Positions 17,351 to 46,026 of a stretch of DNA of 64,000 nucleotides are shown piece after piece (the stretch's first letter is position 1; each line of letters starts with the position of its first letter). Where the stretch lies: contig CBDCKN010000003.1 in the NCBI GenBank assembly GCA_965218295.1, forward strand, positions 514,391-578,390. Direction: 5' to 3'. Made by a program: the position numbers and the translations under genes. This stretch comes from Longimicrobiales bacterium (GTDB lineage Bacteria > Gemmatimonadota > Gemmatimonadetes > Longimicrobiales > Gaopeijiaceae). Below the pieces are notes generated by a model. That model ran no database searches. It was not told where the DNA came from and saw only the letters and a list, made by a program, of their open reading frames with translations.

Positions 17351-17466
17351 CCTTCCCGCGTAGGGATTGATGGATCGGGAGCGACCCCAAGGGACGGGGG
17401 CAGGGGTGTGAAAACACACCTGCCTCCGAACCCGTACCAGGCCCTCGGACTGGGGGGTCGCTCCCG
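17351..17466 (+). repeat. Structured three-way-junction element, copy 1
   Basis: CCTTCCCGCGTAGGGAT leader, then GGGAGCGACCCC...GGGGTCGCTCCC outer stem with internal hairpins. Confidence 0.75.
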
Positions 17467-17649
17467 TCCCGGTCAGTGCTGCCCGTGCGGCGCTGACCGA
17501 CCCGGCCGCGAAGGCGCAAGACGCGCTAATTCAATTGTAAGTTGTTGTTATATAATGATTTACTACTGACCAGTCTCACCACATTCCCTCATTAAATCCC
17601 TCTTCTGCGGCGGGAATTCATGGGGCAGTCCAAGACGTCTTCGGACGCG

Positions 17650-18056
17650 TGGGCGGTTGTTGAGCGTCAACCCCCGCACCCCTGCCACGATTGAACCCGC
17701 TTGCTCGCTTGCCGCTTGGCATGGCCGCTGCGTCTTCCCGAACGCGCGCCATCCGCACCGCAACCCACTGATGAGCGAGTCTGTGCGGGGCGTTACGGGC
17801 CTTGGACATCCCCCCGGACCGGATGACGATGCACGGCTTCCGGGCGATGGCAAGAACCATTCTCGACGAGATGTTGGGCTTTCGGCCCGACATCATCGAG
17901 CACCAGCTGGCACATGCGGTGCGGGATCCAAATGGACGGGCCTACAACCGCACGGCATTCCTGCCCGAGAGGCGGTGGATGATGGGACAGTGGGCGGACT
18001 ACTTGGACCGACTCAGGGCCGGTGAAGGGGCCCCCGCCCCTGCGACTGCGTCGTAA
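17650..18056 (+). pseudogene. P4-like integrase C-terminal remnant
   Basis: HGFRAMARTILDE, IEHQLAH and AYNRT..LPERR.MM.QWADYLD. Confidence 0.85.
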
Positions 18057-18694
18057 GGCTTCGGAAACCCCACGGGTCCTCCCCCCAGCCGGGCCGACCA
18101 CGCGCAGGGCGGTCGAAGCGTACCTTCACCTGGACCGAGGGGGACGCTGGGGTGACGGTGCCCGCTCCTGCGGTGACGTCTGACACAGCCCGGGTAACCG
18201 ACACTGCCGAGCTATTCGGCCGTGGCAGTGGCAGCGAGGCTCACTGGCGGGTGGATTCTTGGACGTCCCCTCGTCGCGGTGATCGCCGCCACTCGTGCTG
18301 CGCCCCCGTCATCCGGACCCGTAGCGCTGACCGTTGCCACCGAGGGGTCGCTGGACCGTAAAAACCAATAGGCGAAGGAAGAGCTCGTAGGTGCGGATCT
18401 CCAGAGCGCAATTTCCGATGAGCAGCCGACGCCGTATGGGCGCAACACTCAGCGTGCGGCAATCCAGGGCGGTCGTTTCCGTGATGCTTGGCTTGGAGTT
18501 TCTAGTCCCGACGGCGTGCCGGTCTTTGCCGCGCGGACGTGCCGCAGGTTGGCCACGCAGTAGAATGGTGGGAGGTTAGAGTCGCATCTTCAGTTGACGA
18601 CATTAGAACGGGGAAGAGTTTCACGATGGCGCAGGCGATCTTCAGGTCCCACAGCCAATCTCAATCCCGCGCGGTCTGAGAACAGGAAGTAGAT

Positions 18695-21600
18695 GTGCTG
18701 AGTGCTGAAGTGCCCATCCGCGAAGGACAGGTCCTCACCGGACCCCTGTTCAGTGAGCCCATGCAGGTGGAGACGGTTCGCGCCAACGGTCCCGGCGTCT
18801 GGGTGGCAGGCCTTGTGGGCCAGCGTTCAGAGCGGTTCCGGCGAGTCACACTCACGTCCGCTGACATTGCGAAGCTAAGCATCGCCGACTCTGCTCTATC
18901 CTACGATGGCGATGGACGGCTATTGCGGATCGCCCTCCAGGCCTATTCGCTGGGCATTGCCTGGGAGTTCGATCCCTATTTCGGACTTTCCATCTCTCGT
19001 GTGGACCCGCTGCCGCACCAGCTTGAAGCGGTCTACGAGCACCTTCTCAAGCTGCCCAGCGTGCGTTTCCTGCTTGCTGACGACGCGGGTGCAGGCAAGA
19101 CCATCATGGCCGGCCTCCTGGTCCGTGAACTGAAGCTGCGGGGCCTAATTGAACGAGTACTTGTGGTCTGTCCCGCGAACCTGTCGTTTCAGTGGCAGAG
19201 GGAGCTGAAAGAGAAGTTCGACGAGAAGTTCGTCGTGCTGAAGGGCAGCGACATCCGCGATCAGTTCGGGGTCAACCAGTGGATGGAGCAGAAGCAGATC
19301 ATCACGTCGCTCGACCTCGCCAAGCGCACGGAGATTTTTCCTGGCGTACAGCAGGTACACTGGGATCTGGTGATCGTCGACGAGGCGCACCGCATGTCGG
19401 CACGTGACGAGAGCCATAAGAGCCAACGCTACAGGCTCGGGGAGATGCTGCGCGACAGCACCGATCATTTCCTGCTGTTGACCGCCACCCCGCACAAGGG
19501 CGACCCAGAGAACTTCACGCTGTTCCTGCAGCTGCTTGACCGGGACGCCTACGCCGACGTGAAGTCGATCCACGAAGCCATGGATCGGAGGCGGGCGCCC
19601 TTCTACCTGCGGCGCACCAAGGAGGCGATGGTCTATTTTCCGGAGCGCCAGGCCGACGGAGCGTGGACCGCGAAGCCGGTGTTCACCAAGCGCATCCCGC
19701 GCACAGCTGCCTTCGCCATCGATGGCCCGGAGTTCGAGCTCTACCAGAAGATCACCCGGTTCGTGAAACGGCAGAGTGCCCGTGCAGCGGCGGAGGGCGA
19801 CGATCCACGGGCTCGCGCGGTCGGCTTCTTGATGTCGCTATATCAGCGGCGCCTGGCCTCAAGTACGTACGCCATGCGGCGGTCGCTCGAGAATCGAGTG
19901 AGGCGGCTAGAGGAGGGTCTCAAGCGGGCCCAGGATCTGGTGCGTATGGCGCCGCCGGACCTACCCGACTGGGAAGAGCTCGAGGAGTTCGAGGAAGCCG
20001 AGCGTGAGCGTCTGGAGCGAATGCTGGAAGCGGTCACGTTGGCCGGCAACGCCGAGCAGGTACGTGAAGAGGTGGCCGAGCTGCTAGGGCTGGCCGAAGA
20101 GGCGAAGGCCGTCGAAGGCTCGGCCAACGAGGCGAAACTCGGACATCTTCATAAGATCATGCAGGATGAGGGATTCTTCGACCGCCCGGACCAGCGACTG
20201 CTGCTCTTCACCGAGTTCAAGGACACCCTAGACCACTTGATGGAGCAGTTGAAGGCGTGGGGCTTCAGCGTGGGCTGCATCCACGGCAGCATGAAGCCTG
20301 GCTCACGCGACGAACCGGGGAGTCGGCTCTACACGGAACAGCAGTTCCGCGAAGGTGCCATCCAGGTGCTAGTGGCGACCGAGGCGGCCGGTGAAGGCAT
20401 CAACCTTCAGTGCTGTCACATCCTATTTAACTACGACATCCCATGGAATCCGAATCGGCTCGAACAGCGCATGGGCCGCATCCACCGCTACGGACAGCAA
20501 CACGACTGCCTGATCTTCAACTTCGTTGCGACCAACACCATCGAAGGGCGGGTGCTGCAACGCCTCCTGGACAAGCTCCAGGAGATCCGCGATGCCCTCG
20601 ATGACGATGCAGTATTCAACGTCGTGGGCGAGATCTTGCCCTCCGCTCACCTGGAGCGTGTGCTGCGGGACTATTACGCAGGCAAGCTGGGTGACGCCGA
20701 CCTCGAGGAGCGGCTGCTCAAGGATGTGGATGAACGTCATTTCCGAGCCATTTGTCAGACAGCGCTGGAGGGCTTGGCAGCGAAGAAGCTCAACCTGGAC
20801 ATGCTCACTGAGCGGCGGGCCCGGGCCCAAGAGCGACGTGTTGTTCCCGAGAGCATTGCTCGGTTCATCAAGGAATCGGCTCAAGATGCGGCCTTCGCCT
20901 TGAAGCCGGCGAGGGATCTAGCTCATACGTTTCAGCCGGGTCGGACACCGCCCAGCCTGAGAAAGTATGAGCGTGAGCCGGACTGGCGGCTCACCGACTT
21001 GGCGAATCGCTATCCGCGCCTGTCGACCGACCGCGAGACTGCCGAGAAACACAATCTCGAATGGGTGACGCCCGGACATGCGCTATTCGAGGCTCTACGC
21101 CGGCATAGTCTCGACCGCGGCCTGGAAGCCTTCGCCAGGGGCGCCTGCTTCCACTCGCTGGCGCACGACGCGCCAGCGCGGCTCGATTTCTACCGGGCGC
21201 GTGTCGTGGACGGTCTCGGTCAGGTCATCCACGAGCGACTGTTTACCGTGGAGCTGACGGCCGACCGGTCGCCCCGCCTCCGTGAGCCGGATGTACTCGG
21301 TGACATGAGTCCCACCGTCTTGTCCGATGATCTACCGCCCGTGGCCACCCTCGCGGAGCCGACTGCTTGGCTCAACGAGAATGCCCTGGTGCCCTTTATC
21401 GAAGAGGTTCGCGCCGAACGGCTGGCCGAAGTCGAGCGCATCGGCGAACACGTTGAGCTCTCCTTGACCGAGGTTCTACAGCGGATCGACGAGGAGATCG
21501 GCCGTGCCGCAGATGAAGTAGCTAACGAGATCACAGGCGCGGAGGGGCGCCTTACACAGGCAGAAACCCGCCACACGGAGGTGTTGGTGCGGCGCGAACG

Positions 21601-22105
21601 CCGGCGCGAAGAACTCAAGCGGCAGCGGGCCGTGACACTGCAGGGTGTCGAGCGGCTGGCGAGCGTACTCATCCTGCCCCATCCGGAAGGCAGCATCCTC
21701 GATGTCCGACGGCTACGCCCCCATCCCGAAACCGAGATGACTGCCATGCGGGTGGTCATGGAGTATGAGACTGCGCAAGGACGCCAGGTCTATGACGTCC
21801 ATGAGAAGAACCTGGGCTACGACGTGACCAGCCTTGATCTCCAGTCTGGTGAGCTGCGCCTGATCGAGGTAAAGGGTCTCGCGGCCGCCACCGGGAGCAT
21901 CCTACTCACGCCGAACGAACGCCGCGTTGCCGAGGACCGTCCGGACTGTTTCTGGCTCTATGTGGTCACCAACTGTGCGAGCAGGCCTGAGCTCCGGGAG
22001 CCGATCAAAGACCCGGCCCGCTTCCCCTGGCATGAGGTCACCAAGGTTCAACACTACTGGTTGGACGTCGATGCTATGACGCAGCCACCGAGAGAAAGAG
22101 GATAG
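18695..22105 (+). CDS. SNF2-family helicase with C-terminal DUF3883 (NO VEIN-like) nuclease domain
   Basis: LPHQ, LADDAGAGKT, DEAH, TATPH, GEGINLQ and QRMGRIHR; GYDVTS..LIEVKG. Confidence 0.92.
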   Translation: MLSAEVPIREGQVLTGPLFSEPMQVETVRANGPGVWVAGLVGQRSERFRRVTLTSADIAKLSIADSALSYDGDGRLLRIALQAYSLGIAWEFDPYFGLSISRVDPLPHQLEAVYEHLLKLPSVRFLLADDAGAGKTIMAGLLVRELKLRGLIERVLVVCPANLSFQWQRELKEKFDEKFVVLKGSDIRDQFGVNQWMEQKQIITSLDLAKRTEIFPGVQQVHWDLVIVDEAHRMSARDESHKSQRYRLGEMLRDSTDHFLLLTATPHKGDPENFTLFLQLLDRDAYADVKSIHEAMDRRRAPFYLRRTKEAMVYFPERQADGAWTAKPVFTKRIPRTAAFAIDGPEFELYQKITRFVKRQSARAAAEGDDPRARAVGFLMSLYQRRLASSTYAMRRSLENRVRRLEEGLKRAQDLVRMAPPDLPDWEELEEFEEAERERLERMLEAVTLAGNAEQVREEVAELLGLAEEAKAVEGSANEAKLGHLHKIMQDEGFFDRPDQRLLLFTEFKDTLDHLMEQLKAWGFSVGCIHGSMKPGSRDEPGSRLYTEQQFREGAIQVLVATEAAGEGINLQCCHILFNYDIPWNPNRLEQRMGRIHRYGQQHDCLIFNFVATNTIEGRVLQRLLDKLQEIRDALDDDAVFNVVGEILPSAHLERVLRDYYAGKLGDADLEERLLKDVDERHFRAICQTALEGLAAKKLNLDMLTERRARAQERRVVPESIARFIKESAQDAAFALKPARDLAHTFQPGRTPPSLRKYEREPDWRLTDLANRYPRLSTDRETAEKHNLEWVTPGHALFEALRRHSLDRGLEAFARGACFHSLAHDAPARLDFYRARVVDGLGQVIHERLFTVELTADRSPRLREPDVLGDMSPTVLSDDLPPVATLAEPTAWLNENALVPFIEEVRAERLAEVERIGEHVELSLTEVLQRIDEEIGRAADEVANEITGAEGRLTQAETRHTEVLVRRERRREELKRQRAVTLQGVERLASVLILPHPEGSILDVRRLRPHPETEMTAMRVVMEYETAQGRQVYDVHEKNLGYDVTSLDLQSGELRLIEVKGLAAATGSILLTPNERRVAEDRPDCFWLYVVTNCASRPELREPIKDPARFPWHEVTKVQHYWLDVDAMTQPPRERG

Positions 22106-22173
22106 CTAGTGTCTGGATCCCTCATCGAATCAGTGGATGGATCAACCGACGGGCATCTCCCAGGAAAGGCCCA

Positions 22174-25131
22174 ATGATTCCCAAGGAGTGCAAACGGCTG
22201 GCCGAGGTCGACTTTCCGATTGCGGAAGTCTCGAAACACGCGGTGCGAGAAAAGTCGATTCGGCATGGCCATCCCTCGACACTGCACCTGTGGTGGGCGC
22301 GGCGACCCTTGGCGTCGTCGCGGGCGGTGTTGATGGCATTGCTGCTGCCGGACCCATGCGACGCACGCTGTCCCGAGGCGTTCAAGCGGGACGCGCGCCG
22401 GATTCTCTTGGGTATGCACGGACGACCGCAAGGTTGGATCTCGGAGATCGAGCGGGATGAGGGATTACGGCGGATTGTCCTGAAGTTCATTGCCGACTTC
22501 GCCAACTGGGACCGTGCTTCCGACCGCACCTATCTAGATGTCGGCCATGCGCTCGTGAGGGCAGCACACGGCGAAGAACGTCCTCTGGTCGTGGACCCGT
22601 TTGCAGGTGGAGGCTCGATCCCGCTGGAGGCGCTACGTCTCGGCTGCGAGGCATTCGCCAGCGATCTCAACCCCGTGGCCTGCCTGATCCTGAAGGTGAT
22701 GCTGGAGGACATTCCACGTAACGGGCCGGGACTGGCTGAGGAGCTGCGTAAAGTCGGTGGGGAGATCAAGCAGCAGGCTGAGCGGGAGCTAGCCGATCTG
22801 TATCCGGCTGATCCGGACGGGGCGACACCCATTGCCTACCTCTGGACACGAACGGTGCGATGCGAAGCGCCGAACTGCGGCGCAGAGATTCCGCTCATGC
22901 GCTCCTTCTGGCTGTGCAAGAAGCCGAGGCGAAAGTGGGCGCTGCGACACCGGGTCGAGCGGGCACAAGGCGCGCTGCCGCGAGTCGAATTCGAAGTGTT
23001 CGAGCCAGATGCAGGAAAGGACGTGCATGGAGGTACCGTGACGCGAGCCAGGGCGACCTGCCTTTGCTGCGGCGCGGTCCTAGCACCTGATCGGGTACGG
23101 CCACAACTAGCAGCCCAGCGGGGCGGGGCGGATGTCGCATTCGATGAACAGGGCCGCCGAACAGGCGGTGCGCGCATGACGGCGGTGGTGACGCTTAAGC
23201 CCGGCGAAAGGGGGCGACATTACCGGTTGCCTACGGATGCGGACTACGCGGCGGTGTATAAGGCACAAGAGCGAATCGCCGGGATGCTAGACGAGTGGGA
23301 ACGCGGTGGGAAGCAAGGGCTATGCCCGGTGCCGGATGAGAGGATCGAACTGACGGAGATCCGGCGTATCAGCGTGCCAATCTACGGCATGCTGCAGTGG
23401 GGCGATCTGTTCACGGCGCGGCAGAAGGTGGCGTTGGTGGAGTTGGGGCAGCTTACCGTTTCGGCTGGCTCGGTGAGACAGTTTCTGGCGCTAGCTTTGA
23501 CCAGGGCAGCCAATGCCGGCTGTTCGCTCTGTAGATGGCATACAACGGGAGAGAAGCACGAGGGTGTCTTTTCTCGTCAAGCGCTTCCAATGGTCTGGGA
23601 CTTTAGCGAAGGGAACCCGTTCTCAGGATCGACCGGCGGCTATGACGGCGCTCTGGACTGGATTGCCAACGTAGTAAGTGCTTGGCCAGGATCTATCGCT
23701 GGCCAAGTTCAAGCCGCCGACGCCACCGACCATCCCTTACCTGACCAAACCGCCAGCGTCTGGTTCACCGATCCGCCCTACTACGATGCGGTTCCCTACG
23801 CGCACCTGGCGGATTTTTTCTATGTTTGGCTCAAGCGAGTACTGCCCGATCATCCGTTACTAAGGTCTGTTGATCCTGACAGCCGCACGACGCCCAAAGA
23901 GCGAGAGATTGTGGTAGACCGGCCTCATCGACTAAGCAGTTCCAAGAAAGACGCGACGTTCTACGAAAAAGAAATGGCCGCCGCCTTCGCCGAAGGCCGC
24001 CGGGTGCTGCGCCAGGACGGCGTAGGCTCTGTCGTCTTCGCCCACAAGACGACAGAAGGCTGGGAGGCACTGCTTTCTGGCATGATCCGGGGCGGTTGGA
24101 CCATCACCGGCTCCTGGCCCGTCGCGACGGAAATGGGTTCGCGCCTCAACGCACGGGAGACGGCGTCGCTTGCCACCAGCGTCCACCTCGTCTGCCGTCC
24201 ACGACCCGTGGAAGCGCCTGTCGGCGACTGGGCGGATGTCCTGCGCGAACTGCCCGCACGCGTGGCCGATTGGATGGAGCATCTGCAAGGCGAGGGCATA
24301 CGAGGCGCAGATCTAGTCTTCGCTTGCATCGGGCCCGCACTCGAGATCTTCAGCCGCTACCGTGCGGTCGAGACCGCGGAGGGCCGGAACGTAGGCTTGC
24401 CCGAGTACTTGGAGAAGGTCTGGGAGGTCGTCGGCCGCGCGGCGCTTCAGCAGGTGCTCGGCACATCAGAAGCGCGAGCGCACAACGGCCTCGCGGGTAC
24501 GTTGGAAGAAGACGCACGCCTTACCGCGCTCTTCCTCTGGACACTGCAGAGCACGGACACCTCCGAAGAGAACGGCAAGAAAGACCAGGACGAGGAAGTC
24601 GTGGCCAACTTAGCGGCCAAGGGATTCAGCCTGCCCTTCGACGTCGTGCGCCGCTTCGCCCAACCGATGGGCATCGACCTCGATGTCTGGACCGGACGCA
24701 TTGTCGGGCAGGAAGGGGGTGTGGTGCGCCTGCTGCCAGTGACCGAGCGGGCGGAGAGGCTATTCGGCGAAGACGGTGCGCGGGCCGCCGCCGACTGGAT
24801 CGAGAGCGACCCGGGTGCTGACGTACAGGCGACACTTTTCCCCGACTTCGAGCCCACGCCAAGGCCGAGGCACCGTCGTCCAGGAAGGCAGAACATCCTC
24901 GGCAGCGATGCGGAACTTCAGACGATAGACGCTACGACGCTGGATCGTGTGCACGCGGCCATGCTGCTTCAAGCCAGCGGCCACGCCAATGCGCTACGGA
25001 AGCTGCTCGGCGCCGAACAGGATCGCGGTCCCGAGTTTCTGCGGCTTGCTAACGCTCTGTCCTCCCTGTACCCGCGTGGCAGCCGGGAAAAGCGGCTGCT
25101 CGATGCCATGCTATTGGCGGTACCACGGTGA
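22174..25131 (+). CDS. DUF1156-domain adenine-specific DNA methyltransferase with Zn ribbon
   Basis: LHLWWARRPL, DPFAGGGSIP (SAM binding), TDPPYY (catalytic) and FAHK. Confidence 0.92.
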   Translation: MIPKECKRLAEVDFPIAEVSKHAVREKSIRHGHPSTLHLWWARRPLASSRAVLMALLLPDPCDARCPEAFKRDARRILLGMHGRPQGWISEIERDEGLRRIVLKFIADFANWDRASDRTYLDVGHALVRAAHGEERPLVVDPFAGGGSIPLEALRLGCEAFASDLNPVACLILKVMLEDIPRNGPGLAEELRKVGGEIKQQAERELADLYPADPDGATPIAYLWTRTVRCEAPNCGAEIPLMRSFWLCKKPRRKWALRHRVERAQGALPRVEFEVFEPDAGKDVHGGTVTRARATCLCCGAVLAPDRVRPQLAAQRGGADVAFDEQGRRTGGARMTAVVTLKPGERGRHYRLPTDADYAAVYKAQERIAGMLDEWERGGKQGLCPVPDERIELTEIRRISVPIYGMLQWGDLFTARQKVALVELGQLTVSAGSVRQFLALALTRAANAGCSLCRWHTTGEKHEGVFSRQALPMVWDFSEGNPFSGSTGGYDGALDWIANVVSAWPGSIAGQVQAADATDHPLPDQTASVWFTDPPYYDAVPYAHLADFFYVWLKRVLPDHPLLRSVDPDSRTTPKEREIVVDRPHRLSSSKKDATFYEKEMAAAFAEGRRVLRQDGVGSVVFAHKTTEGWEALLSGMIRGGWTITGSWPVATEMGSRLNARETASLATSVHLVCRPRPVEAPVGDWADVLRELPARVADWMEHLQGEGIRGADLVFACIGPALEIFSRYRAVETAEGRNVGLPEYLEKVWEVVGRAALQQVLGTSEARAHNGLAGTLEEDARLTALFLWTLQSTDTSEENGKKDQDEEVVANLAAKGFSLPFDVVRRFAQPMGIDLDVWTGRIVGQEGGVVRLLPVTERAERLFGEDGARAAADWIESDPGADVQATLFPDFEPTPRPRHRRPGRQNILGSDAELQTIDATTLDRVHAAMLLQASGHANALRKLLGAEQDRGPEFLRLANALSSLYPRGSREKRLLDAMLLAVPR

Positions 25132-25135
25132 CGGC

Positions 25136-26101: not shown

Positions 26102-26114
26102 CCGGAGGAGAATC

Positions 26115-29539: not shown

Positions 29540-29800
29540 TGGGAGGTCGTGGCAATCGCCCGTGCCCCACGGGAGCTAGAGCGAGGCCGGGCGATCCTCG
29601 GAGGCTGGGCCGCGGCCTCCGGGCCGGAGGCGCCGGACGCCGGGGTTTCTGAAGAGGCCGCCCGCATTGAGCGGGTGATCCTTCATGGCGACGAGCGGGC
29701 ACTCGGGGAGTACGGCGGTCTGCAGGCCGCCAAGAAGCGAAGCGTCGTGCTGAGGAAGCGCGCACGCCAAGGGCTGACGGCAACGGTGCGCCTCTCCGGG
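29540..29800 (+). pseudogene. C-terminal remnant paralogous to the element backbone gene at 42788-43683
   Basis: EVVAIAR..RELERGR.....WA.ASGP..PDAG..EE.ARIER.IL.G...GGLQAA.KRSVVL matches the 42788 ORF. Confidence 0.8.
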
Positions 29801-29842
29801 CGCACTTCCGATTACCCGCTATGTGTCATGCCACTACCGGGA

Positions 29843-30100
29843 TGTGAATACGACCCGGGCGGTCGATTCACAGATGACCCCGGTCGCGATTCACAGAGGC
29901 ATGGCTCGCGATTCCTTTGCGGTTGTTGCGGTTACGCCTGGTGCTGCCTGGTCGGCGGGGACGCACCGGGCTCGCCGACCGGGATGGGAGCGACCCCCCC
30001 TGTGGACGCCCTAGTAATGGCGTCGGCCGGTGCGGGTTTTCACAAACCTCGCACCGCCCCCGGGGGGTCGCTCCCGTTCCAATGATCCCTCGCGAGAAGG
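29843..30100 (-). repeat. Three TTCACA/TGTGAA boxes plus structured element, copy 2
   Basis: Boxes at 29843, 29867 and 29890; stem 29986-30075; leader (rc) ends at 30100. Confidence 0.75.
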
Positions 30101-30417
30101 CCGTCATCCGCCAACGAAGACCCCGGCCAAGGACCTAGTGACGTCGCCGGCGCGACCGCCAAGCGGCATCAATTGGTCGCGGGAAAAGTATATCCTCTGG
30201 CGTATAGTTCGGCGTCTTGCCGTCACGAGGGAAGGGCCCCTAGCCTGTGCTGCCTGTGCCAAACCTCGGTGATTATATACTTGACGCAGCGGTCGAGGTT
30301 TTATGCAGAGCCTTGTGGGGCTCGATGCGGGCAGCCAATATGGGCGCTACGCAATGGCTACGCACGAACGGCTGCACAAGGGTTACGTTACCCTTACTAA
30401 CCCAAGAGAGGTGCGTG

Positions 30418-33482: not shown

Positions 33483-33553
33483 TTGATTTCCAAGAGTGTC
33501 TCACTGGCGTTGACAGGTTCCGGATATCATCGTCAGCAAGAAGTGATCGATCC

Positions 33554-33979
33554 ATGCGAGTAGCACTTGTCTCATGCGTCAAGTCCAAGAGTGCGGCCCC
33601 CGCAGCGGCCCGCGACCTGTACACGTCGCCATTGTTCCGCGGGCTGCGCCGGTACGCCGAGAAGAACGCAGACACCTGGTTCGTCCTTTCCGCACAACAT
33701 GGGTTGATTCCCCCAGCCCAGGTACTTGAGCCGTATGAGAGGACGCTCAATCGGCTCGGTAAGGCCGAGAGGCTACAATGGGCAACGCTGGTCCAACGAC
33801 AACTACTTGAGGTTCTGCCACTCGGGGCCGAGGTGGTCATCCTGGCCGGTGTACGCTACCGGGAAAACCTCGTTCCTTTTCTCCGCGACCGTGGTTTCTC
33901 TGTTACCATTCCGCTCGAGGGCCTCTCCTTCGGGAAACAACTTCAGCATTTGAAGATCCAAGGCCTGCTCGGGGAATGA
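33554..33979 (+). CDS. DUF6884-like protein
   Basis: LVSCVKSK...ARDLYTSPLF, VLSAQHGLI, EPYE.TL and LAG..Y. Confidence 0.8.
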   Translation: MRVALVSCVKSKSAAPAAARDLYTSPLFRGLRRYAEKNADTWFVLSAQHGLIPPAQVLEPYERTLNRLGKAERLQWATLVQRQLLEVLPLGAEVVILAGVRYRENLVPFLRDRGFSVTIPLEGLSFGKQLQHLKIQGLLGE

Positions 33980-34683
33980 CCTCAGACGTAGACCGGTTCT
34001 ACGAACTCGTTGGCATCCTGGCAACGCTGCCGGGTCAAGGTCGGCGGCTCGGTGAATACACGGGTAGATCGGCTTGGCCGGATCGCGGCGTGTACTTCTT
34101 CCGTGATCCGGGTCAACAGCGAACCGGGCACCCAGAGATGTCGCGTGTTGTCAGGGTAGGGACCCACGCCGTGAGCGCGAACGCCACGTCCAAGCTGTGG
34201 CCCCGGTTGCGGGCGCACCGTGGCGGGAAGGACGGACGAGGGAACCACCGCGGATCCGTTTTCCGGCTCCATGTGGGGTTGGCGCTGCTCCAAAGGGATG
34301 GAGGCGCCGCTGCCGTGCCAAAATGGGGTATCGGCCGATCGGCCGCGCGCGACGTGAGGAACGCGGAAGTTCCTCACGAACGCCTGGTGTCCGAGTACAT
34401 CGTGGGGTTGTCGATACTGTGGCTGGCCGTACCCGACGACCCGGGTCCACGCAGTGCACGTGCTTACGTTGAGCAGAATTCTATAGCGTTACTCTCCAAC
34501 GAGTTCAGTCCGATGGACCGGCCCAATAGCGAATGGCTGGGTGTCCACAGTTCCAAGAACGAAATCCGAATGAGCGGACTTTGGAATGTGAAACATGTGG
34601 CACGACAGTACGACACACACTTCCTCGACCGGTTCGAAGAACTAATACGGAAGATGCCGGGTTCCCCGATCCCCTATCGTTGA
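33976..34683 (+). CDS. Putative GIY-YIG-like nuclease
   Basis: RGVYFF..VVRVG, RLRAH, SVFR and conserved E/N near the C-terminus; ATGA overlap. Confidence 0.6.
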   Translation: MTSDVDRFYELVGILATLPGQGRRLGEYTGRSAWPDRGVYFFRDPGQQRTGHPEMSRVVRVGTHAVSANATSKLWPRLRAHRGGKDGRGNHRGSVFRLHVGLALLQRDGGAAAVPKWGIGRSAARDVRNAEVPHERLVSEYIVGLSILWLAVPDDPGPRSARAYVEQNSIALLSNEFSPMDRPNSEWLGVHSSKNEIRMSGLWNVKHVARQYDTHFLDRFEELIRKMPGSPIPYR

Positions 34684-34950
34684 TCGTTTGTCCTCACTCG
34701 TTCTTCGTCCCGCCCAGATCCCCTACAGCTTCCTACCTCCTGCCGCCGCGTCAGGCAGTGGCGTGAGCCCGGTAGATCTGTTTCTTCGTCGTCAGCGCCC
34801 AAGCCATGTCCGCCATCAGCCACGCGGCCGGATCGCATCCGGGCCCTGGCCTGGCCGGGATGCGCCGGGTTCCGTGACACAATTTTAACACAGGTCGGGT
34901 AGACTGGACGCGAAACGTGTCAGAGTAATGACTCAATCGGAGTAGAGTAG

Positions 34951-35175
34951 ATGACGGACACGCATCGCGTCCTTCCTCACCCAGACGGTGGCTGGCAGGT
35001 GAAGAGAGACGGGAACGACCGCGCTTCGAAGCGGACTCGGACAAAGGCCGAAGCCGAGGCGATCGGTCGGAAGACTAGCCGGAACCAGAGGACTGAGATG
35101 GCCGTCCACCGGAGGGACGGGACGATCGAGCGGCGGGATAGCCACGGGAACGACCCGGCGAGCCGGCCCGGTTGA
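34951..35175 (+). CDS. DUF2188 family protein
   Basis: GGWQVKRDG..RAS....TK.EA...GR and HRRDGTI..RDSHGNDP. Confidence 0.9.
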   Translation: MTDTHRVLPHPDGGWQVKRDGNDRASKRTRTKAEAEAIGRKTSRNQRTEMAVHRRDGTIERRDSHGNDPASRPG

Positions 35176-35176
35176 G

Positions 35177-35983
35177 GTGGAGAGCCTAGAGCCTCTGAAG
35201 GTCCTGATCTGGGCCAAGACCTACCCCGAACTATCCAAGAGGAACCGCGAGACGGTTTGCACAGGAGGGTGTCTGGACGACGGCACGCCCATCCGCCTCT
35301 ACCCGGTGCCGCTCCGGTATCTCCCAGGCACGAGCCAATACCGGCTCTACGACTGGATCTCTATCCCGCTTCGGCGCAACCCATTGGACACCCGTCCTGA
35401 GAGCTTCCGGGTCGCACGTGGAGTGATCCCGACGACGGTCGGCAGGGCAACCGCGACTCATGGCTGGGAGGCGCGGAGGGAGATCCTTTTCAAGCGACGG
35501 GATTGGTACTTTGACTGTGCCTCGGACCTACAGGCTGCTCAACAGCGCGCCGGGACCTCGCTCGGACTCGTAACCGTGCGCCACGTTGATCGAGTGAGTA
35601 TGGTAAAGAGACCGGGAAGCGATCGGGTCGAGCACGAGGCAAAGCTGGACGCCCTGAGAGCTAACCGGGACCTGTTCGGGCGGGCCGGCCGTCAGAAAGA
35701 CTTGGAGTTCCTGCCCTGGCGTTTCAAGCTCCGGTGGCGCTGCGAGGCACAGGGATGCGGTGGCCACTCGGCATCCGTCCTAGACTGGGGGCTCGGCGAG
35801 TTGGCGCGCCGCGAGGGACCGGAGAAAGCCATGGCCAAGCTCCGAGAGTTGACCGACCTGGGACGCTACGACCTGCGGCTCTTCCTTGGAAACATGAAGG
35901 CGCGGCCTCGGACGTTCAGCATCGTCGGGCTCTGGTATCCGTTGCGCTCTGAGCAAGCCCAGACTTCGCTGTTCATCGAGTGA
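35177..35983 (+). CDS. Conserved hypothetical protein (KTYP..S...ETVC family, possibly OB-fold)
   Basis: KTYPELS...ETVCTGG, IRLYPVP, D.RPESF, C....C.GH and DW motifs. Confidence 0.7.
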   Translation: MESLEPLKVLIWAKTYPELSKRNRETVCTGGCLDDGTPIRLYPVPLRYLPGTSQYRLYDWISIPLRRNPLDTRPESFRVARGVIPTTVGRATATHGWEARREILFKRRDWYFDCASDLQAAQQRAGTSLGLVTVRHVDRVSMVKRPGSDRVEHEAKLDALRANRDLFGRAGRQKDLEFLPWRFKLRWRCEAQGCGGHSASVLDWGLGELARREGPEKAMAKLRELTDLGRYDLRLFLGNMKARPRTFSIVGLWYPLRSEQAQTSLFIE

Positions 35984-36431
35984 CGAAGCGGGGCGCCCCG
36001 TCTGGATCGAGGTGCTCGACTCGTGCTTCGAGGCCGAGCGCTTCAAGAAGGATGTGGCGGTGACAGTCTTCCGGATGCCGCTCGTAGCAAAACAGGCAGC
36101 CCTTCTCGCCCTCGCGGGATAGCTCCTCGAGTATCGCCTGGAGGCGTTTCGCGATCTGAGGATGCTCGTTCAGATACGCTCGATACATCACTAGGCACTC
36201 GTCGTGAGATCGGGCGCTCTGCCGGATCCACTTTGGGTTGCCCGCGAACTGTGCGTGGAGATATCGGATCCCTCGCTCTGCAAGCGCAGCTTCCAGCGCT
36301 GCGGCTCGGTACCCAGGGACATGACTCCATGGTGTCTCTCGGACGTCGATGACGACCGACACACCGGCGCCGGCCAGTTCGGTCAGAAGGTTGTCCAGCG
36401 GTCGAAGCTGGTATCCGACTGTAGTTACCAC
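35973..36431 (-). CDS. DUF488 family protein
   Basis: TVGYQ, IDVRETPWS, GNP and CYER.PEDCHR. Confidence 0.88.
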   Translation of the reverse strand: MVTTVGYQLRPLDNLLTELAGAGVSVVIDVRETPWSHVPGYRAAALEAALAERGIRYLHAQFAGNPKWIRQSARSHDECLVMYRAYLNEHPQIAKRLQAILEELSREGEKGCLFCYERHPEDCHRHILLEALGLEARVEHLDPDGAPRFVTR

Positions 36432-38010: not shown

Positions 38011-38047
38011 AGGACGAGCGTCACCAGCCTCATCATCGCGCTGACAA

Positions 38048-38306
38048 CCTTCCCGTAGGGATCCATGGCTGGGAGCGACCCCCCGGCGGAGGGTGGCATG
38101 GGTGTGCACATGCCAGCCCTCCCCGATGCCGATCAAGGCATCCCCAAAGGGGGGGTCGCTCCCATCTACGGCCGAAAGCTCCAGAGCGGCGTCTCCGCTC
38201 CGACGGCCGTGCCACAACTGTAAGACAGGCAGCCGTATACGGAAGCGCTGGCGCGCACATGGAATTGGCGTTTCGGTGCACATGCACCCCGTTGTCTGAT
38301 GTGCAC
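38048..38306 (+). repeat. Structured element copy 3 plus three G(T/C)GCAC boxes
   Basis: Stem 38071-38163; boxes at 38253, 38276 and 38301; close inverted paralog of 45765-46026. Confidence 0.85.
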
Positions 38307-38537
38307 TCGCCGATCAGCACCCACCCGAGCCGATCCGCGTTCATGACCAGCCTCCGGGGAGCCGGTTCGAGCGCCATGTCGCGAACCCGTGGATCACCCG
38401 CCTGACGGATGGCCTGCCCGATCCGGGCGGTCTCGCGGCGGGCCGCTTGGTTGGATGAGCCGGACGGGTCGGATGCTCGGGCTCCAGGGCCCACTAGAGG
38501 GTGCCTACCCAGGATCGGGGCGGGGGGGCGGGGGTGG

Positions 38538-39260: not shown

Positions 39261-39765
39261 GATGCTTCGACTCTATTTCCAGTGAACCATGATTGATCGA
39301 GAAACCGAGTGGCCATCCTAACGTACTGTCGGTGCCAGGAGCCATTGGGAAGACAATCCTCAGTTCGATGAACCTGTCCGTCAAGCTGGATTCCTGCCGT
39401 TTCGAGTTCACCCGGCGCTCGATGCTGACATCTAGGGTCGACGCGGCCGGGACGACGCTTGCCGCCCTTCCGCAGCGAACGCTAGATGGACCATGCGGTT
39501 CGTCCACGCAGTGTTACCGCGGCGGACGGGATCGTGGGAGAGAAGGGCGTATCGGACGGTGAGTCTGGACATAGCCTGCTCCGCATGATGACCGGGTGCT
39601 ACGGGTTCCACCTAGAACAGCTCGGCCTCCGGGTCTAGAGTCTCGCCGGCCAGGTAGGCCGCCCAGTCCGCTATAGCATAGATCATAACGCTATGTTACA
39701 TCACATCTTATGACTTCAGATGATCTTCGTCTATCACCCCTGCAATCACCCTTTCCGCTCAACAG

Positions 39766-40010
39766 GTGCGCGTGCGCGACAGCGGCTCCCGCTCGTGGGC
39801 CCAGCGACTCATGGTACACGGCCGGCGCGTCGACATCGGCCTCGGCAACGCGGAGCTGGTGAGTCTGGCGGACGCGCGCCGCGCGCGAACGATCTCGTTC
39901 GCTCAAGCCGAGCCGCGGGCGCTGGCGGAGAAGGCGGAGACCTGGCGAGCCGGCGCCGACTCGAAGTCGCTACGCGACTGGCGCTCGACCATGGCGGCCT
40001 ACGTGCTGCC
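39766..40010 (+). pseudogene. P4-like integrase N-terminal (Arm DNA-binding) remnant
   Basis: SGSRSWAQRLMVHGRRVDIGLGNAELVSLADAR. Confidence 0.75.
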
Positions 40011-40126
40011 CGCAGCAGTCGGGGCAACGGATTCGGTGAGACCCGGATCCGGGCCCGACCCGTTTCTACAACGATGCAGGATTCATCCATCCACAACTCA
40101 CCACGAATCAACTCAGGAGAACCCGC

Positions 40127-40648
40127 ATGAAACTCGTTTCCACAGCCGCAGCCGTCCTGTTGCTCGTCCTCGCCGCGTCCGCTCCAGCCCATGCGCAGTT
40201 GACGGGCTCCCTCAACGGCCTCCACGACATCACCGTGACCAACCTGAAGGCGACGGCGGATAAGGTGCCGGCCGACCTCTACGACTTCCGGCCCACGGAC
40301 GAAGTGCGCACCCTCGGGCAGATTCTGGCTCACGTGGCCAACTCCCAGTACGCCTTCTGTTCGGCCGCTTCCGGCCAGGACAACCCGATGTCGGAGAACC
40401 TGGAAGAGACCGCCACCACCAAGGCCCAAATCACCGCCGCTCTCGCCGACGCGTTCGCCTACTGCGACGCCGTGTACGCCTCCATGACCGATGAGCAGGC
40501 GGCGATGACAGTCAGCTTCTTCGGCGGCGACATGGCTGTCGGTGGCGTGCTCGCGTTCAATTCGATGCACAACTACGAGCACTACGGGAACCTGGTCACC
40601 TACATGCGCATCAACGGGATCGTGCCGCCCTCGTCGGCGGGGAACTGA
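40127..40648 (+). CDS. Exported DinB family protein
   Basis: Signal peptide; FRPT.EVRT.GQILAHVA and HNYEHYGNLVTYMR..GIVPPS; AGGAG RBS. Confidence 0.88.
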   Translation: MKLVSTAAAVLLLVLAASAPAHAQLTGSLNGLHDITVTNLKATADKVPADLYDFRPTDEVRTLGQILAHVANSQYAFCSAASGQDNPMSENLEETATTKAQITAALADAFAYCDAVYASMTDEQAAMTVSFFGGDMAVGGVLAFNSMHNYEHYGNLVTYMRINGIVPPSSAGN

Positions 40649-41104
40649 GGGTCTACGGCCCAAACGCCCCCAGGGGGATCACGCTCACCCCGTCCGGACG
40701 AATGTGACACGGGCTAGCACAAAGGCTAAACGGTGTCAACGGCTTGACGTTGCCCCAGGATGCTGGTGGCCTCTCGCCGCTTGAAGGCTGTATCAGAGAA
40801 TCATCATCGTGGGACCGCCTCCTCGGAAGATACGACGTTGAGACGCAAGATCGCCGTAAGTAGCTGCCAATCCTGCCCGTCCCCCTGGGCATCTGGAATC
40901 CTCCCTTCTGCGGGACCTCGGAGTCGCCCGGTACTCCGTTCAGGTTCCCGCTAGAACACAGCTACCCCGGCCAACCGACCGCCGCACCAGATCCGACAGA
41001 GTCAACCCTGCGGAGCGTGCCTTGGCGTGCCACGCGGCGCGCTCCACCTCGCTGGCGCGGATCTGCACCCACACGTCGCGTCCAGCGCCCATGATGTGCC
41101 GTTG

Positions 41105-41279: not shown

Positions 41280-42512
41280 TCAGCGAGCCGGTTCGGCCTC
41301 CGGGTCGCGACTCTTGTCGGCCAGGTACGCCGCCCAATCGTCCATGAGCCGGCGGCGGCGCTCGAACAGGTCCGTGCGCCGATAGGCTGCCTCGACTTTG
41401 TTCCGGACCACATGCGCCAGCGCGGCTTCGACGACTTCGCGCGGATGGTCCGTCTCCTCGGCCACCCAGTCGCGGAACGAAGACCGGAAACCGTGGGGCA
41501 CGGCCGCGATCTCGAGCTTCCGGAGTAGCCGGCGCAGCCGCTTGTCGAAAATCGGTTGGCCGTCGCCAAGAGTGAACACGAGGGGGCTGCCGTCTCCGAG
41601 CTTCCGAGCCTCCTCGAGGATCTCCGTCGCGCGGCCACATAGCGGTACCCGGTGCTCCCGCCTCGCCTTCATGCGCGCCGGGGGAACCGTCCACACCGCC
41701 TCCTTCCGATCGATCTCGACCCACTCGGCCCACCGCACCTCGCTCCACCTCGCCGCCGTCAGCACCAGGAACTCGAACGCCAGACGGACGGCTGGCTCCG
41801 CCTCCGATGTTCGTGCCGCCTCGATCGCCGATGCCACCTCGCGATGCGGCAACGCCCGCAGGTGCTGCACGACGTCATGCTGGGGGCTTAGCACCGAGCC
41901 GAGCCGGTCGCAGGGGTTGTCGGTCCTGAGCTCCATCGCTACTGCCCACTCCAGCACCGCCCGGATCCTCCACCGTACGTTTCGCGCCAAGGCCGCCTTC
42001 ACGTGCCAGATGGGTGTGAGGATCTCCAGCACGTCGGCGCTCGTCACCTCCGAGACCGCCATCTCGCCGATGCGCGGGAAGGCGTACCGCTCGAGGCTCG
42101 ACATCCAGTCGTGGGCCTGCTTCGGATTGCGCCAACCGGTCCGCTTCTGCTCCACCACCTTCGCGGCCGCTTCCGCAAAGCTCGGCATGCCCCGGGCGCG
42201 GCGTTTCTCCGCAAGGGGGTCGCCGCCCTCACGGGCCAACTTGCGGTTCGCTTGCGCCTTCTCACGCGCCTCGGCGAGCGAGACCAGCGCGACGCTGCCG
42301 AGTCCGAAGTCGCGACGCCGACCGCGGATGACCAGGCGTTGAACCCAGCTCCGGGCACCGCTCGGCTGAACGAAGAGGTAGAGCCCGTTACCGTCGCAAT
42401 GTCTGCCCGGCGGGGCCGTACGCACGAAGGCGGCCGACAGGGCCTTGTCGGGATGGCGGCCTTTAGGCTTGGTTTTCCGGGGCGGATCGGTGGTGTTCGT
42501 TACGGCATCCAT
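41280..42512 (-). CDS. P4-like tyrosine integrase (Arm DNA-binding domain)
   Basis: DGNGLYL, LTAAR.SE, RMK, HGFRSSFRDW, ALAH and AY. Confidence 0.95.
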   Translation of the reverse strand: MDAVTNTTDPPRKTKPKGRHPDKALSAAFVRTAPPGRHCDGNGLYLFVQPSGARSWVQRLVIRGRRRDFGLGSVALVSLAEAREKAQANRKLAREGGDPLAEKRRARGMPSFAEAAAKVVEQKRTGWRNPKQAHDWMSSLERYAFPRIGEMAVSEVTSADVLEILTPIWHVKAALARNVRWRIRAVLEWAVAMELRTDNPCDRLGSVLSPQHDVVQHLRALPHREVASAIEAARTSEAEPAVRLAFEFLVLTAARWSEVRWAEWVEIDRKEAVWTVPPARMKARREHRVPLCGRATEILEEARKLGDGSPLVFTLGDGQPIFDKRLRRLLRKLEIAAVPHGFRSSFRDWVAEETDHPREVVEAALAHVVRNKVEAAYRRTDLFERRRRLMDDWAAYLADKSRDPEAEPAR

Positions 42513-42705
42513 TACCTCATAATATAGGGGATGGAGCTGGATATCAAGGGATGTTATGAGGATTGGAAGGGACTGTTGAAAGATCGTAAAGTGCTCTAAT
42601 ACAGTATGTTATGTACTCTACTGGACGATATGAAGCGTCATAGGATTCTGCCTGGACGTGTAGGCGCAAGACGTGGCCGTGTCGTGGCTTACGCCGTAGC
42701 ACGCG

Positions 42706-42758
42706 TGCGCATCGCCGGAGGGCCAAAGTGCGCATCGGCCCCCCGCGTCGTTTGCGCA
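42706..42758. promoter_or_regulatory. Three TGCGCA boxes at 23/24-bp spacing downstream of the backbone gene
   Basis: Boxes at 42706, 42729 and 42753; same geometry as the other box triplets. Confidence 0.55.
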
Positions 42759-42787
42759 CTCCAGTGCGGCCGTAAGTCGCGCGCCGG

Positions 42788-43683
42788 TCATCGGTAGCGC
42801 GCCCCCGCGAGACGCACCGTCCGCCAGGTGCTGGCCCGCCGGATGGACCCGGGTCCGGGCTGGCGGCGCACCTGCTTCTCGAGCACGACGCTACGCTTCA
42901 TGGCGGCCTGCAGGCCTCCGAACTCCTCCAGGATCTGCACCGCGCCCTGAAGGATCGGCCGCTCGATCCGGGCCAGTTCCTCGCGGATCCCGGCGTCGGG
43001 CTCGCCGGGGCCGGAGGCTTCGGCCCAACCGCGCATCACGCGCCGGGCTCGCTCGAGCTCCCGCGAGGTGCGCGCGACGGCGACGACCTCGACGGACCGG
43101 CCTTGTCCCTGGAGCGCGTGCCAGAGCCCGCGGTGCGCCGCGCCCCAGGAGCGGAGCGCGGTCGCGGTGTCGTGGCCGGGATCGACGTAGACGAACACGG
43201 CGCGGCCCGAGTCCAGCGCGATGGGCAGTTGAGCGGGAAGCAGCGCCGGGTCGTGCCGGCGGCTCCCCGGTAAACCCGGACGGGCAGCGATGCGGGTTCG
43301 ATCCCGAGCGCCTCGAACGCTCCGACCTTCTCGTGCTCCGTGGCAAGCCAGGGCAGACCCGTGTGCTCGATCACATAGTCGAGCGAGAGCAGGCCCGCAT
43401 GAGCACGCCGGGAGACGCCGTGCGGCGGTGGCGGATGTGCTCGGCTCCGAGCACGCGATAGAGGCTCCGTGCGTAGATCCGGCACACGCGGCCGATCCCC
43501 CGGACGCGGGGCACGGTCTCCTCCGCTGCCGAGCCCTGCGCGATCAGCGCGTGGACGAGGCGGCGCGCCCGTTCGTGATGCGTGTCCAGGAACCGCGTCG
43601 CCTGCGCGCGGGTGAAGGCGCCGCTGTGGAGGCAGGCGAGCGCGATCCACTCGGCCTTGCGTTCCTTCCAGCCGGGCGATCAT
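42788..43683 (-). pseudogene. Integrative-element backbone protein (wHTH-like N-terminus, possibly replication/relaxation-like), frameshifted
   Basis: Stitched frames give AEWIALACLHSGAFTRAQ, LLSLDYVIEH..LPWLATEHEK and VFVYVDPG; paralog remnant at 29540. Confidence 0.6.
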
Positions 43684-43880
43684 CGCCCGTCCCCGGTCAC
43701 GAGCGCCCGGTCGACCTGGAGGTAGGTGATGAGGATGCCCATGGGGTTGTAGACGACGAGCTCGGGGGGGATGCGGTAGAGGAACTCGAACCGCAGCATG
43801 AGCGACCAGCGCTCGCGCCGGATCTCCTGTCCGTCCCTGAGGTGGACGAGATCGAAGTCGGCCGTCACCGTCCTCAACAA
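43680..43880 (-). pseudogene. VirB8/TrbF-like C-terminal fragment
   Basis: RERW....F......PELVVYNPMGILITY (NPxG motif). Confidence 0.55.
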
Positions 43881-43915
43881 CGTTTCTCATCGTCTGTTCG
43901 TTATCTCCTTAAGGG

Positions 43916-44155
43916 TCAGTGGGCGGCACTCTCCGTGTCCCGGCTTTCCGCGATCCGTTCGCGGATCCACTCGTCCACCTCCGCCTCGATCCAGCCCACG
44001 GCGCGCGAGCCCAGCGAGACCGGCCGGGGGAAGCGCCCCTCGGCCAGCCGCACCTGGATCGTGCTCCGCGCCAGCCCCGTGCGGGCCGTCACCTCCGGCC
44101 GCCGCAGGAAGCGGGTCGGCGGGTTCGTTCTCTGTTCGATCGGTTGTTCGGTCAT
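43916..44155 (-). CDS. AlpA-family transcriptional regulator/excisionase
   Basis: FLRRPEV.ARTGLARSTI, G.FPRPV.LG.RAVGW.E.EVDEW. Confidence 0.92.
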   Translation of the reverse strand: MTEQPIEQRTNPPTRFLRRPEVTARTGLARSTIQVRLAEGRFPRPVSLGSRAVGWIEAEVDEWIRERIAESRDTESAAH

Positions 44156-44432
44156 CGCTCTGCTCCTCCTCGTTCTCCTCGCCCGTGACGAAGGCTTCCG
44201 GACGCCGGTGCCCTCGGGGCGGAGTCCGAGGGCCGCCCGAGTCCAGGTCGTAGTCCGCCACGAACGCCAGAACCCGGTCCGCCGTTCTCAGCGACAGCGA
44301 GCGTCCTCCGTCGAGCTGGCGCATCAGGTTCGGGTCGCCCAGCGCCTTCATGCCGAACGTCGTCGGACTCACGCCCGTCAGCCCGAGGAACACCCTCACC
44401 CGCGAGTCGAACTGCTGCTCCAGCGTCTCCAT
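44152..44432 (-). CDS. Cro-like HTH protein (3' end uncertain)
   Basis: FLGLTGVSPTTFG..ALGDPNL..QL..GRS.SL.TAD.V. Confidence 0.65.
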
Positions 44433-44513: not shown

Positions 44514-44812
44514 ATGCCTGTAGCGGCTAGAGATAGCCAGTACGGTACGCGAGCTGTTGGATGGCTCCGCCAGTGGCATGGCAGACACACCCTCCGCAGC
44601 GCTCGCCAGAGGTTCCCGTCAAGGGTCTTAGGGCTCGACCGGAAGGTCGGCCCGGGCGCGGCCGACTTGGCGTCGCCCACACGGAAGTGACAGGTTTCAC
44701 ATGCCGGGGCGCGGGGCGGTCGCCGAGCGGCGTGCCGTGCCTGCCGCGGCAACGGATCAAGGGCTTCGAGAGCCGGTGTGGATGGCGGAGCCGCTGAGCA
44801 CGCGTCTGGCGC

Positions 44813-45223
44813 ATGGCTGAAGCACTGTTTCAGCGCCTGGCGGCCGAAGAGCGCCGTCATGCCTTGCGTGCCGCTCAAGCCGAATGCCCGCACCCGGCGT
44901 TTCTCCTCGAGAAAGACATCTGGGTGGTCGCAACCCTCGGCGTCCTGTTCGACGCCCCGTTCGGCTATCAGTTGGTGTTCAAGGGCGGCACCTCCTTGTC
45001 CAAGGTGTGGCGCGCGATCCGGCGGTTCTCGGAAGACATCGACATCACCTACGACATCCGCGGCTTCGCACCGGATCTGGTTGCCGGTGCCGGCGACGAG
45101 GCGCTGCCGCTCACGCGCAGTCAGGAGAGGCGCTGGACAAAGGCGATCCGTCCCCGGCTTGCCGAATGGGTCCGCGGGCGGGCCGGCCCGTTCGTCCAGG
45201 AAGGGCTTGCACGCGCCGGGTGA
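44813..45223 (+). pseudogene. AbiEii-family nucleotidyltransferase toxin, truncated
   Basis: LEKDIWVV, FKGGTSLSK and RFSEDIDI; stops at 136 aa. Confidence 0.85.
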
Positions 45224-45764
45224 CCTGACCCGACGTGGGACTTCTCGCCAGATGAATCGGCAACAGTGGATCATCCGACACTGACCGAGAGTACGCGCTA
45301 CCCGGGCATATTCACCGTCTCGTGCGCAGCCACGAACGGCCACCCGTCAGGAGGTTTCTCGGTATCCGCCAATGTAATGTACGGTGGAATAACGAAGTCC
45401 GCGGCGGCTGATCACGCCGCTCCCGACCCCGAGTACACCAAGATCTGCATGCCATAGGGGTTTCGCCGTTCTTGCACTAGGCAGGCCCGGCCGTGGTGGA
45501 TAACACCACGGCCGGTTGCTTCGCTGCGGGGTCAGACTCCCAGTACTCGAACTCCTGGGGAATCTGGCGCGTTTGGCGGGCCGGAATCCGGATCTGGTTC
45601 GCAGCATGCGTCGGGGGGATATGTGTCGAATGGCTAGGCTGGAGGCGTTGTACTGGGCGCTGGGCTACCGTGTGATGTTGGTCGTGGATCGGCCGCAGGC
45701 GGTTCCGTTCGATGAGGCTGTCGCTCTGGTGAGGGATTTGAAGGCGCAAACCGTTCGTGTTCGA

Positions 45765-46026
45765 GTGCACATGAGACATCGGGGTGCATGTGCACCGAAA
45801 CGCCATTTTCATGTGCGCGCCAGCGCTCCCTCATGTGGCTGCCTGTCTTACAGTTGCGGCACGGCCGCCGGAGCGGCGACGCCGCTCCGGAGCTTTCGGC
45901 CGTAGAAGGGAGCGACCCCCCCTTTGGGGATGCCTCGATCGGCATCGGGGAGGGCTGGCATGTGCACGCCCATGCCACCCTTCGCCGGGGGGTCGCTCCC
46001 GTGTCCATCAGTCCCTCGCGGGAAGG
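45765..46026 (-). repeat. Three boxes plus structured element, copy 4
   Basis: Boxes at 45765, 45790 and 45813; stem 45908-46000; leader (rc) ends at 46026. Confidence 0.85.

Follow-up and report, generated by a model that had tools for sequence, protein, structure and literature searches.

What role does a structured element of about 90 nucleotides play when it recurs four times in 64,000 nucleotides of DNA from a Longimicrobiales bacterium (contig CBDCKN010000003.1, positions 514,391 to 578,390; this whole stretch is called the window below)? The original prediction, made from the letters of the window, described dispersed three-way junctions with a common outer stem and leader, and proposed for them either an antisense RNA like the P4 CI and C4 immunity RNAs or a single-strand origin or recombination substrate of integrative elements. 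We conclude that the element is probably the origin of transfer (oriT) of a compact family of integrative and conjugative elements (ICEs) with a divergent MOBC-like system, and that the copies in the window are most likely stranded or hitch-hiking copies in a decayed island.

Inspection places the four copies at the coordinates and on the strands first given for them, with lengths of 89, 90, 93 and 93 nt and the outer stem GGGAGCGACCCC/GGGGTCGCTCCC common to all. Each folds into a stalk that bears two hairpins, one long and one short (z from -6.0 to -8.3; 0 of 200 shuffles as good), the short one being weak in copy 1, as had been noted, and the leader can be recognised and forms a small hairpin of its own. 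The claim that the interiors differ holds for about three of them, since copies 3 and 4 are close kin (66 of 69 interior columns identical, against 42-44 of about 70 for the other pairs). Their likeness spans 239 nt, so the unit is longer than 90 nt: the full element measures about 300 bp and extends beyond the junction on the 3′ side of the strand first read. A fifth copy, lacking the junction, lies at 42654-42781 and had not been listed before.

The function of the element is best approached through its distribution. In the source genome (3.57 Mb) an exact pattern finds 15 copies and a DNA profile gives 21 hits, 18 of which lie within 2 kb of a marker of an ICE or of an integrative and mobilizable element, against 6% of random positions; the predicted link to integrative elements is thus upheld. 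The exact pattern scan of species genomes yielded at least 71 loci in Gemmatimonadota (mostly Longimicrobiales), Acidobacteriota and Gammaproteobacteria, organisms that we take to be sponge symbionts, and the pattern scan of viral contigs gave 0 matches. Among 41 related genomes, the element and a gene here called R are present in the same five, and the other 36 lack both. The R proteins nearest to the intact R of the source genome, at 95% identity, come from Longimicrobiales. No description of the element or of the ICE family was found in a literature search of the main texts of open-access papers; its novelty could still be affected by oriT listings in the supplements of preprints.

VirB4, the other genes of the type IV secretion system (T4SS), a coupling protein and an integrase occur in intact relatives, while the window's own copies sit in decayed modules. 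An intact ICE of about 16 kb reads, in order, a helix-turn-helix (HTH) gene, AlpA, pilin-like and virB3-like open reading frames (ORFs), virB4, virB9, virB10, a probable virB5, virB6, virB8, R, the module, virD4, virB11, ArdC, a second gene R2, a small ORF and a tyrosine recombinase, the T4SS names being taken from Pfam and the pilin-like and virB3-like ORFs assigned by eye. The order R-element-virD4-virB11-ArdC-R2 recurs in 13 of 44 mapped regions, each holding a single module between R and virD4. When loci were picked by R alone (51 in total, some of them near-duplicates, 12 not evaluable), the core lay 163-197 nt downstream on the same strand in 30 of the 39 evaluable cases, and in 55 intact cases the R stop codon lies 154-214 nt, mostly 164-184 nt, ahead of the stem. 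Across 161 elements, an R fragment stands upstream of 92 and is missing from 69. This fixed position between R and virD4, and the boxes described next, are features absent from the original prediction.

The anatomy is described here in the operon direction, opposite to the strand first read. After the R stop codon come an inverted box B1, the direct boxes B2 and B3, a GTTGCG-like motif, the junction and a small terminal hairpin, with B1 at about -143, B2 at -120 and B3 at -97 relative to the stem. Within the junction the short hairpin precedes the long one, which bears a fourth box, B4, in its loop; a weaker repeat, A, has two upstream copies and one inverted in the short hairpin. The terminal hairpin ends in GGAAGG, beyond which the sequences diverge. 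In 94 box sets the B boxes (7-8 bp) match within a locus at 0.75-0.80, against 0.54-0.57 when shuffled (maximum 0.64). Where B1 and B4 differ, the direct boxes agree with B4 87 times and with B1 81 times, a pattern such as protein-bound repeats would leave.

Covariation supports selection on structure, as originally proposed, and the larger alignment shows compensatory changes across 103 homologues (103 of 118 non-redundant cores, with the 15 most divergent left out). Model R1 has 11 pairs, taken from the outer stem of the pooled alignment, and double changes occur at 5 of them in these 103 sequences, which include kin and are not independent. RNAalifold, run on the pooled alignment as had been suggested, recovered this outer stem and missed the interior stems because the subtypes misalign there; in subtype alignments double changes appear at 20 of 43 pairs (n=43) and 21 of 43 pairs (n=45), with about 84% of cells paired against 44-56% with slid partners. 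The two inner hairpins form on either strand in 92 of 103 cores, and the small hairpin covaries as well (CCC/GGG in 75, CCT/AGG in 14 and CCG/CGG in 3 of 103). The strand first read has the lower folding energy in 88 of 103 cores; folding normalised for composition is nearly symmetric, that strand being lower in 18 and 23 of 35. Stem mismatches favour it too, with A-C 31 times against G-T 9 times on the operon strand.

A terminal hairpin interrupted at one common point, beyond which the sequence reads GGACTG, occurs in at least five copies (L011:10425-10555, L143:10893-11023, L161:10478-10608, L036 and L069); a long transposase-like ORF follows the cut in L011, which suggests a hot spot for insertion sequences (ISs).

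The product of gene R has 311 aa and 2544 homologues among 7996 scored, and matches no family in Pfam, NCBIfam or Atlas, where the nearest named cluster (DUF5697, at 0.87) is a lead only; searches of R and R2 against plasmids gave no match. The R model (predicted local distance difference test, pLDDT, 85.7) has a winged helix at residues 1-90 that resembles MarR/ArsR regulators, and a C-terminal part that aligns to SdaI (Z 7.5, root-mean-square deviation 3.7, 118 aligned) and to NucS (Z 6.9). R2 carries P222, D223, N239, E241, Y247 and K255 invariant in 118 of 118 rows, a PD..NxE..Y..K set that we presume from known motifs to be the active site. At the presumed equivalent places R has PVA and Y/H/F and no PD, while D110, E124, E126 and D/E176 are kept. 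Among the full-length phage proteins that R and R2 both match is gp146 of phage G, the best viral-structure hit of R (E 9e-4) and the second-best of R2 (E 8.5e-5). This protein belongs to Pfam Replic_Relax (E 4e-25) and is annotated as a homologue of SPO1 gp27.3, whose family has been tied to CloDF13 MobC (PMC3357382). R and R2 would then be winged-helix proteins with a restriction-endonuclease fold, like the Replic_Relax/MOBC relaxases, through links that are structural and modest.

Six relaxase families (PF03432, PF08751, PF03389, PF01076, PF07514 and PF13814; MOBT and MOBM not having been searched) find no match in a complete genome that holds five intact ICEs of this type; the source genome carries separate PF03432 relaxases. 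In addition, a NikA/MobC remnant lies between copies 2 and 3 (window 36536-37498), and others at nine loci of the source genome.

These observations could be joined in the following way. One of the two winged-helix proteins, either R2 or the R protein with its missing PD..E residues, would bind the boxes and set subtype specificity, and R2 would nick near the conserved stem or the terminal hairpin, about 90-140 bp or more from B1-B3. The junction may take shape on single-stranded DNA that is extruded or displaced, with a slight preference for the strand first read; export of the strand would then fall to VirD4 and the T4SS, and copies without R or a T4SS could be mobilised in trans. The earlier suggestion of a single-strand origin or recombination substrate comes close to this reading insofar as the element would be a single-strand DNA substrate.

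A number of results weigh against the oriT reading. By sequence, R and R2 match neither PF13814 nor any NCBIfam family; the Z-scores for the nuclease fold fall in the range that the tool calls common, the TM-scores to gp146 are about 0.4, and the PDB matches listed for R2 are all to winged helices. Profile comparisons failed between R and R2 (probability 4.5%) and between R2 and gp146 (0.15%). Co-evolution of the R recognition helix with the boxes was not found: the partial correlation peaks there (0.31, with other stretches at 0.25-0.28), and in 24 independent pairs the helix gives 0.58 against 0.57 for the rest of R, with 0.72 for non-box DNA. Truncation points placed no nic site, the 31 truncation rows being scattered, and in intact ICEs the spacing between GGAAGG and the start of virD4 would suit ribosome binding. 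In nine of the 39 evaluable R loci the core is not where it would be expected; among these nine are six distant homologues of R, of which one has a hit at +452, as well as one truncated case and one in which the junction is cleanly deleted. The junction is gone from four copies that still have the boxes and terminal hairpin (L136 ~6890-7080, L149:17866, L162:12771, and ~289070-289270 of contig C3 in the source genome). Copies 1 and 5 of the window both break near the conserved GTTGCG-like motif. The element is not filed as a MOBC member, because the test against Pfam PF13814 failed and nicking is a prediction.

The rival explanations read the same anatomy differently. An RNA of the C4/CI type, acting in cis or as an antisense, whose junction loops would pair with upstream A1 and B1 and switch virD4 translation through the GGAAGG hairpin, finds some footing in the three stems and in the two loops, each of which partly complements an adjacent site 140-160 nt ahead of the stem, an arrangement comparable to that described for the C4 loops a' and b' (PMC5320573). 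B1-B4 is moreover the best-agreeing pair of boxes (0.80), its mismatches are G-U compatible 39 times on the operon strand and 7 times on the other, which may stem from register differences between subtypes, and the covarying small hairpin lies over a possible ribosome-binding site. The complementarity is often broken, however: B1 and B4 pair fully in 28 of 68 sets and show two or more true mismatches in 12, A1 and A3 are perfect in 5 of 77, and the direct boxes B2 and B3 follow B4 as often as B1. Only 31 of 118 GGAAGG sites are followed by ATG, and 12 by GTG or TTG; mismatches in the stem lean towards the non-operon strand; and one intact copy that was scanned has no promoter- or terminator-like site. 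None of 4227 Rfam families matches at gathering and E-value thresholds, the C4 model (RF01695) finds nothing on the genome at E 10, and with no viral-contig match there is neither a phage or satellite immunity operon nor an anti-repressor context. Assembled contigs of RNA runs, compared with positions 36900-40700 of the window, give low cover over the element and are uninformative on expression, on habitat and on the presence of the organism. The antisense reading, the first guess of the original prediction, is therefore weak, and we consider it unlikely.

Three further proposals were weighed. The element could serve the excised ICE as an origin of replication or as a signal for single-strand initiation, R acting as initiator or helper on iteron-like boxes and transfer starting elsewhere; the boxes do adjoin a winged-helix protein gene, the fold has a mild strand preference (the 88 of 103 cores above), and Replic_Relax proteins are annotated for both replication and relaxation. 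Yet the site lies against virD4 inside the transfer operon, the many copies without R persist, and the normalised folding is nearly symmetric, all of which makes this an improbable account; since the origins of relaxases can also serve replication (PMC5714925), it is compatible with the oriT reading. An operator or promoter region, where a nuclease-dead R would act as a transcription factor on virD4-virB11-ArdC-R2 and the hairpins would be attenuators, would suit the MarR/ArsR-like domain of R and the fixed place ahead of virD4, but there is no sigma-70-like site or terminator in the scanned copy, and the reading leaves unexplained why whole modules are kept without virD4 and in facing pairs of two subtypes, besides leaving these ICEs without another candidate origin. 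We hold it to be quite improbable. Finally, 15-21 copies per genome and a palindromic core recall a selfish repeat of the repetitive extragenic palindrome (REP) or miniature inverted-repeat transposable element (MITE) kind, whose scatter over the genome had been named as an outcome that would undo the original idea. The scatter was not found: the element is confined to islands, has conserved asymmetric flanks (about 175 nt on one side), occurs once per intact ICE, and is absent from the 36 relatives that also lack R. This reading is largely refuted, and its chances appear very slight.

The window is a decayed island holding integrases, IS elements and defence genes, in which the following features were located.

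17185-17193: lone inverted GGGAAGGCC at the end of the copy 1 spacer
17185..17349, plus strand: spacer beside copy 1; facing pairs in other genomes have a near-identical one of 155 nt
17350..17522, minus strand: extended module of copy 1, cut short, B1-B3 lost; terminal small hairpin and GGAAGG at 17351-17367
17377..17465, plus strand: three-way junction of copy 1, subtype 2; B4 at 17406-17413; operon-sense strand minus
17775-18056: integrase 3′ remnant beyond the shortened copy 1 module
29543..29770, plus strand: R remnant ahead of copy 2, covering residues ~212-287
29824..30102, plus strand: full module of copy 2, subtype 2; inverted B1 29843-29849, B2 29866-29872, B3 29889-29895, B4 30038-30044; junction 29986-30075; terminal hairpin 30085-30100
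33554..36431: cargo between copies 2 and 3, with the PADLOC candidates PDC-M57A/B (33554-34683) and PDC-M19B/A (35177-36431)
38044..38326, minus strand: full module of copy 3, subtype 1, facing copy 2; inverted B1 38299-38306, B2 38276-38283, B3 38253-38260, B4 38104-38111; junction 38071-38163; terminal hairpin 38048-38062
41280..42512, minus strand: P4-type tyrosine integrase adjoining the fifth copy
42654..42781, minus strand: fifth copy, truncated, junction missing; B1 42752-42759, B2 42728-42735 and B3 42705-42712 kept
42788..43682, minus strand: gene R, broken by frameshifts into three pieces, immediately ahead of the fifth copy
43683..44432, minus strand: left-end genes of the same ICE type, namely an HTH gene, AlpA (43916-44155) and a virB8 fragment
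45762..46030, plus strand: module of copy 4, subtype 1, no R upstream; inverted B1 45765-45772, B2 45788-45795, B3 45811-45818, B4 45960-45967; junction 45908-46000; terminal hairpin 46011-46026

At the left-end remnant beside the fifth copy most T4SS genes are deleted, and copies 3 and 4 have no clear R alongside. The spacer of copy 1 and its lone inverted GGGAAGGCC may be, we infer, a relic of a lost facing partner. A hypothetical ORF of 95 aa stands beside copy 4 (46056-46343) and copy 2 (29030-29200), and beside copies elsewhere in the genome. A search for an attL/attR repeat, such as an ICE integrase targeting the element itself would leave, found none; at four loci (L145, L147, L148 and L149) the right end of the ICE carries two GCGGGAA repeats and borders on a portion of another copy of the element, possibly through targeting of sister origins. 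A tRNA scan of the window found no genes, and a one-strand array of 17 tRNA genes lies elsewhere in the source genome (contig C9, 278187-280522).

Copies 2 and 3, of subtypes 2 and 1, face each other across the defence candidates, in a slot that also holds an IS. Its first genes after copy 2 are a DarG/PDC-M19A-like ORF (30247-30852) coupled to a proteasome-subunit-like ORF (30849-31607; PF00227, E 3e-6), possibly a defence pair. Between copies 1 and 2 there is an Hma defence system (18695-28877; HmaA, HmaB and HmaC by PADLOC) with an unassigned ORF at 24947-26101 between HmaB and HmaC. Near-identical IS copies of recent origin, encoding rve-type transposases and one Mutator-type, occupy 31956-33522, 46907-48138, 49654-52451 and 54158-58511. 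Facing pairs are of different box subtype in 24 of the 30 pairs typed, by sequence patterns set up in this analysis, where about half would be expected from the 81:76 ratio of subtypes; one further pair is untyped. The dependence on our own typing tells against this count, as does the common ancestry of heterotypic pairs: three share one spacer, also found beside copy 1, so the number of independent events is below the number of pairs. The excess could also come from like pairs being unstable. It is conceivable, if doubtful, that all of this amounts to an unnamed conjugation system across Gemmatimonadota, Acidobacteriota and Gammaproteobacteria, in which nuclease-dead and active proteins of the Replic_Relax fold would split binding from cutting, the origin would be read as a single-stranded three-way junction, and defence islands would hitch-hike on a pair of facing origins that differ in specificity, allowing ICEs of either subtype to move the cargo between them.

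The oriT reading has some practical bearing. Tools based on relaxases would class these ICEs as non-conjugative; a defined origin of 300 bp and two candidate proteins make them testable and provide a marker of gene flow across three phyla. The system also bears on how MOBC-type enzymes process DNA, and it cautions that strong covariation in a motif of a mobile element need not imply an RNA.

Among known systems, the closest likeness is to MOBC (pAD1 TraX, CloDF13 MobC; PF13814), whose winged helix and restriction-endonuclease fold are also predicted in R and R2, and which has, as here, short repeats tens of bases from a conserved structured site and a neighbouring coupling protein gene (PMC12857230, PMC5714925). 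TraX, with its N-terminal winged helix, binds five direct repeats 70-120 bp from nic, and the same source reports that no covalent DNA intermediate has been seen with MOBC-type enzymes (PMC12857230). In contrast, R and R2 lack a PF13814 match at the sequence level, there are two such proteins per ICE, one of them without canonical acidic residues, and the origin proposed here contains a three-way junction, where the loop of a hairpin holds the fourth box, with a nick position that is predicted only.

The C4 RNA of P1/P7 (RF01695) and the P4 CI RNA share with the element a stalk with two hairpin loops, a length of about 80-90 nt and loops partly complementary to nearby sites, but the element, known from DNA alone, matches no model, has no phage or anti-repressor context, and shows broken complementarity and extra direct boxes. 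The oriT subtypes and mimics of the pWBG749 family combine, as here, a conserved core with subtype-variable repeats; plasmids with mimics bear 2-3 of them, mostly of different subtypes, so that several origins stand on one non-conjugative element, as we propose for the orphan copies (PMC8136818). That family, likened here by description, belongs to other phyla and its specificity factor is a ribbon-helix-helix protein, and for our copies we infer mobilisation in trans. Integrative elements with an oriT only (iOriT) likewise carry defence genes near the origin (bioRxiv 10.64898/2026.01.13.699239). Seen against these relatives, the system is a variant of known conjugation logic and not a new kind of system.

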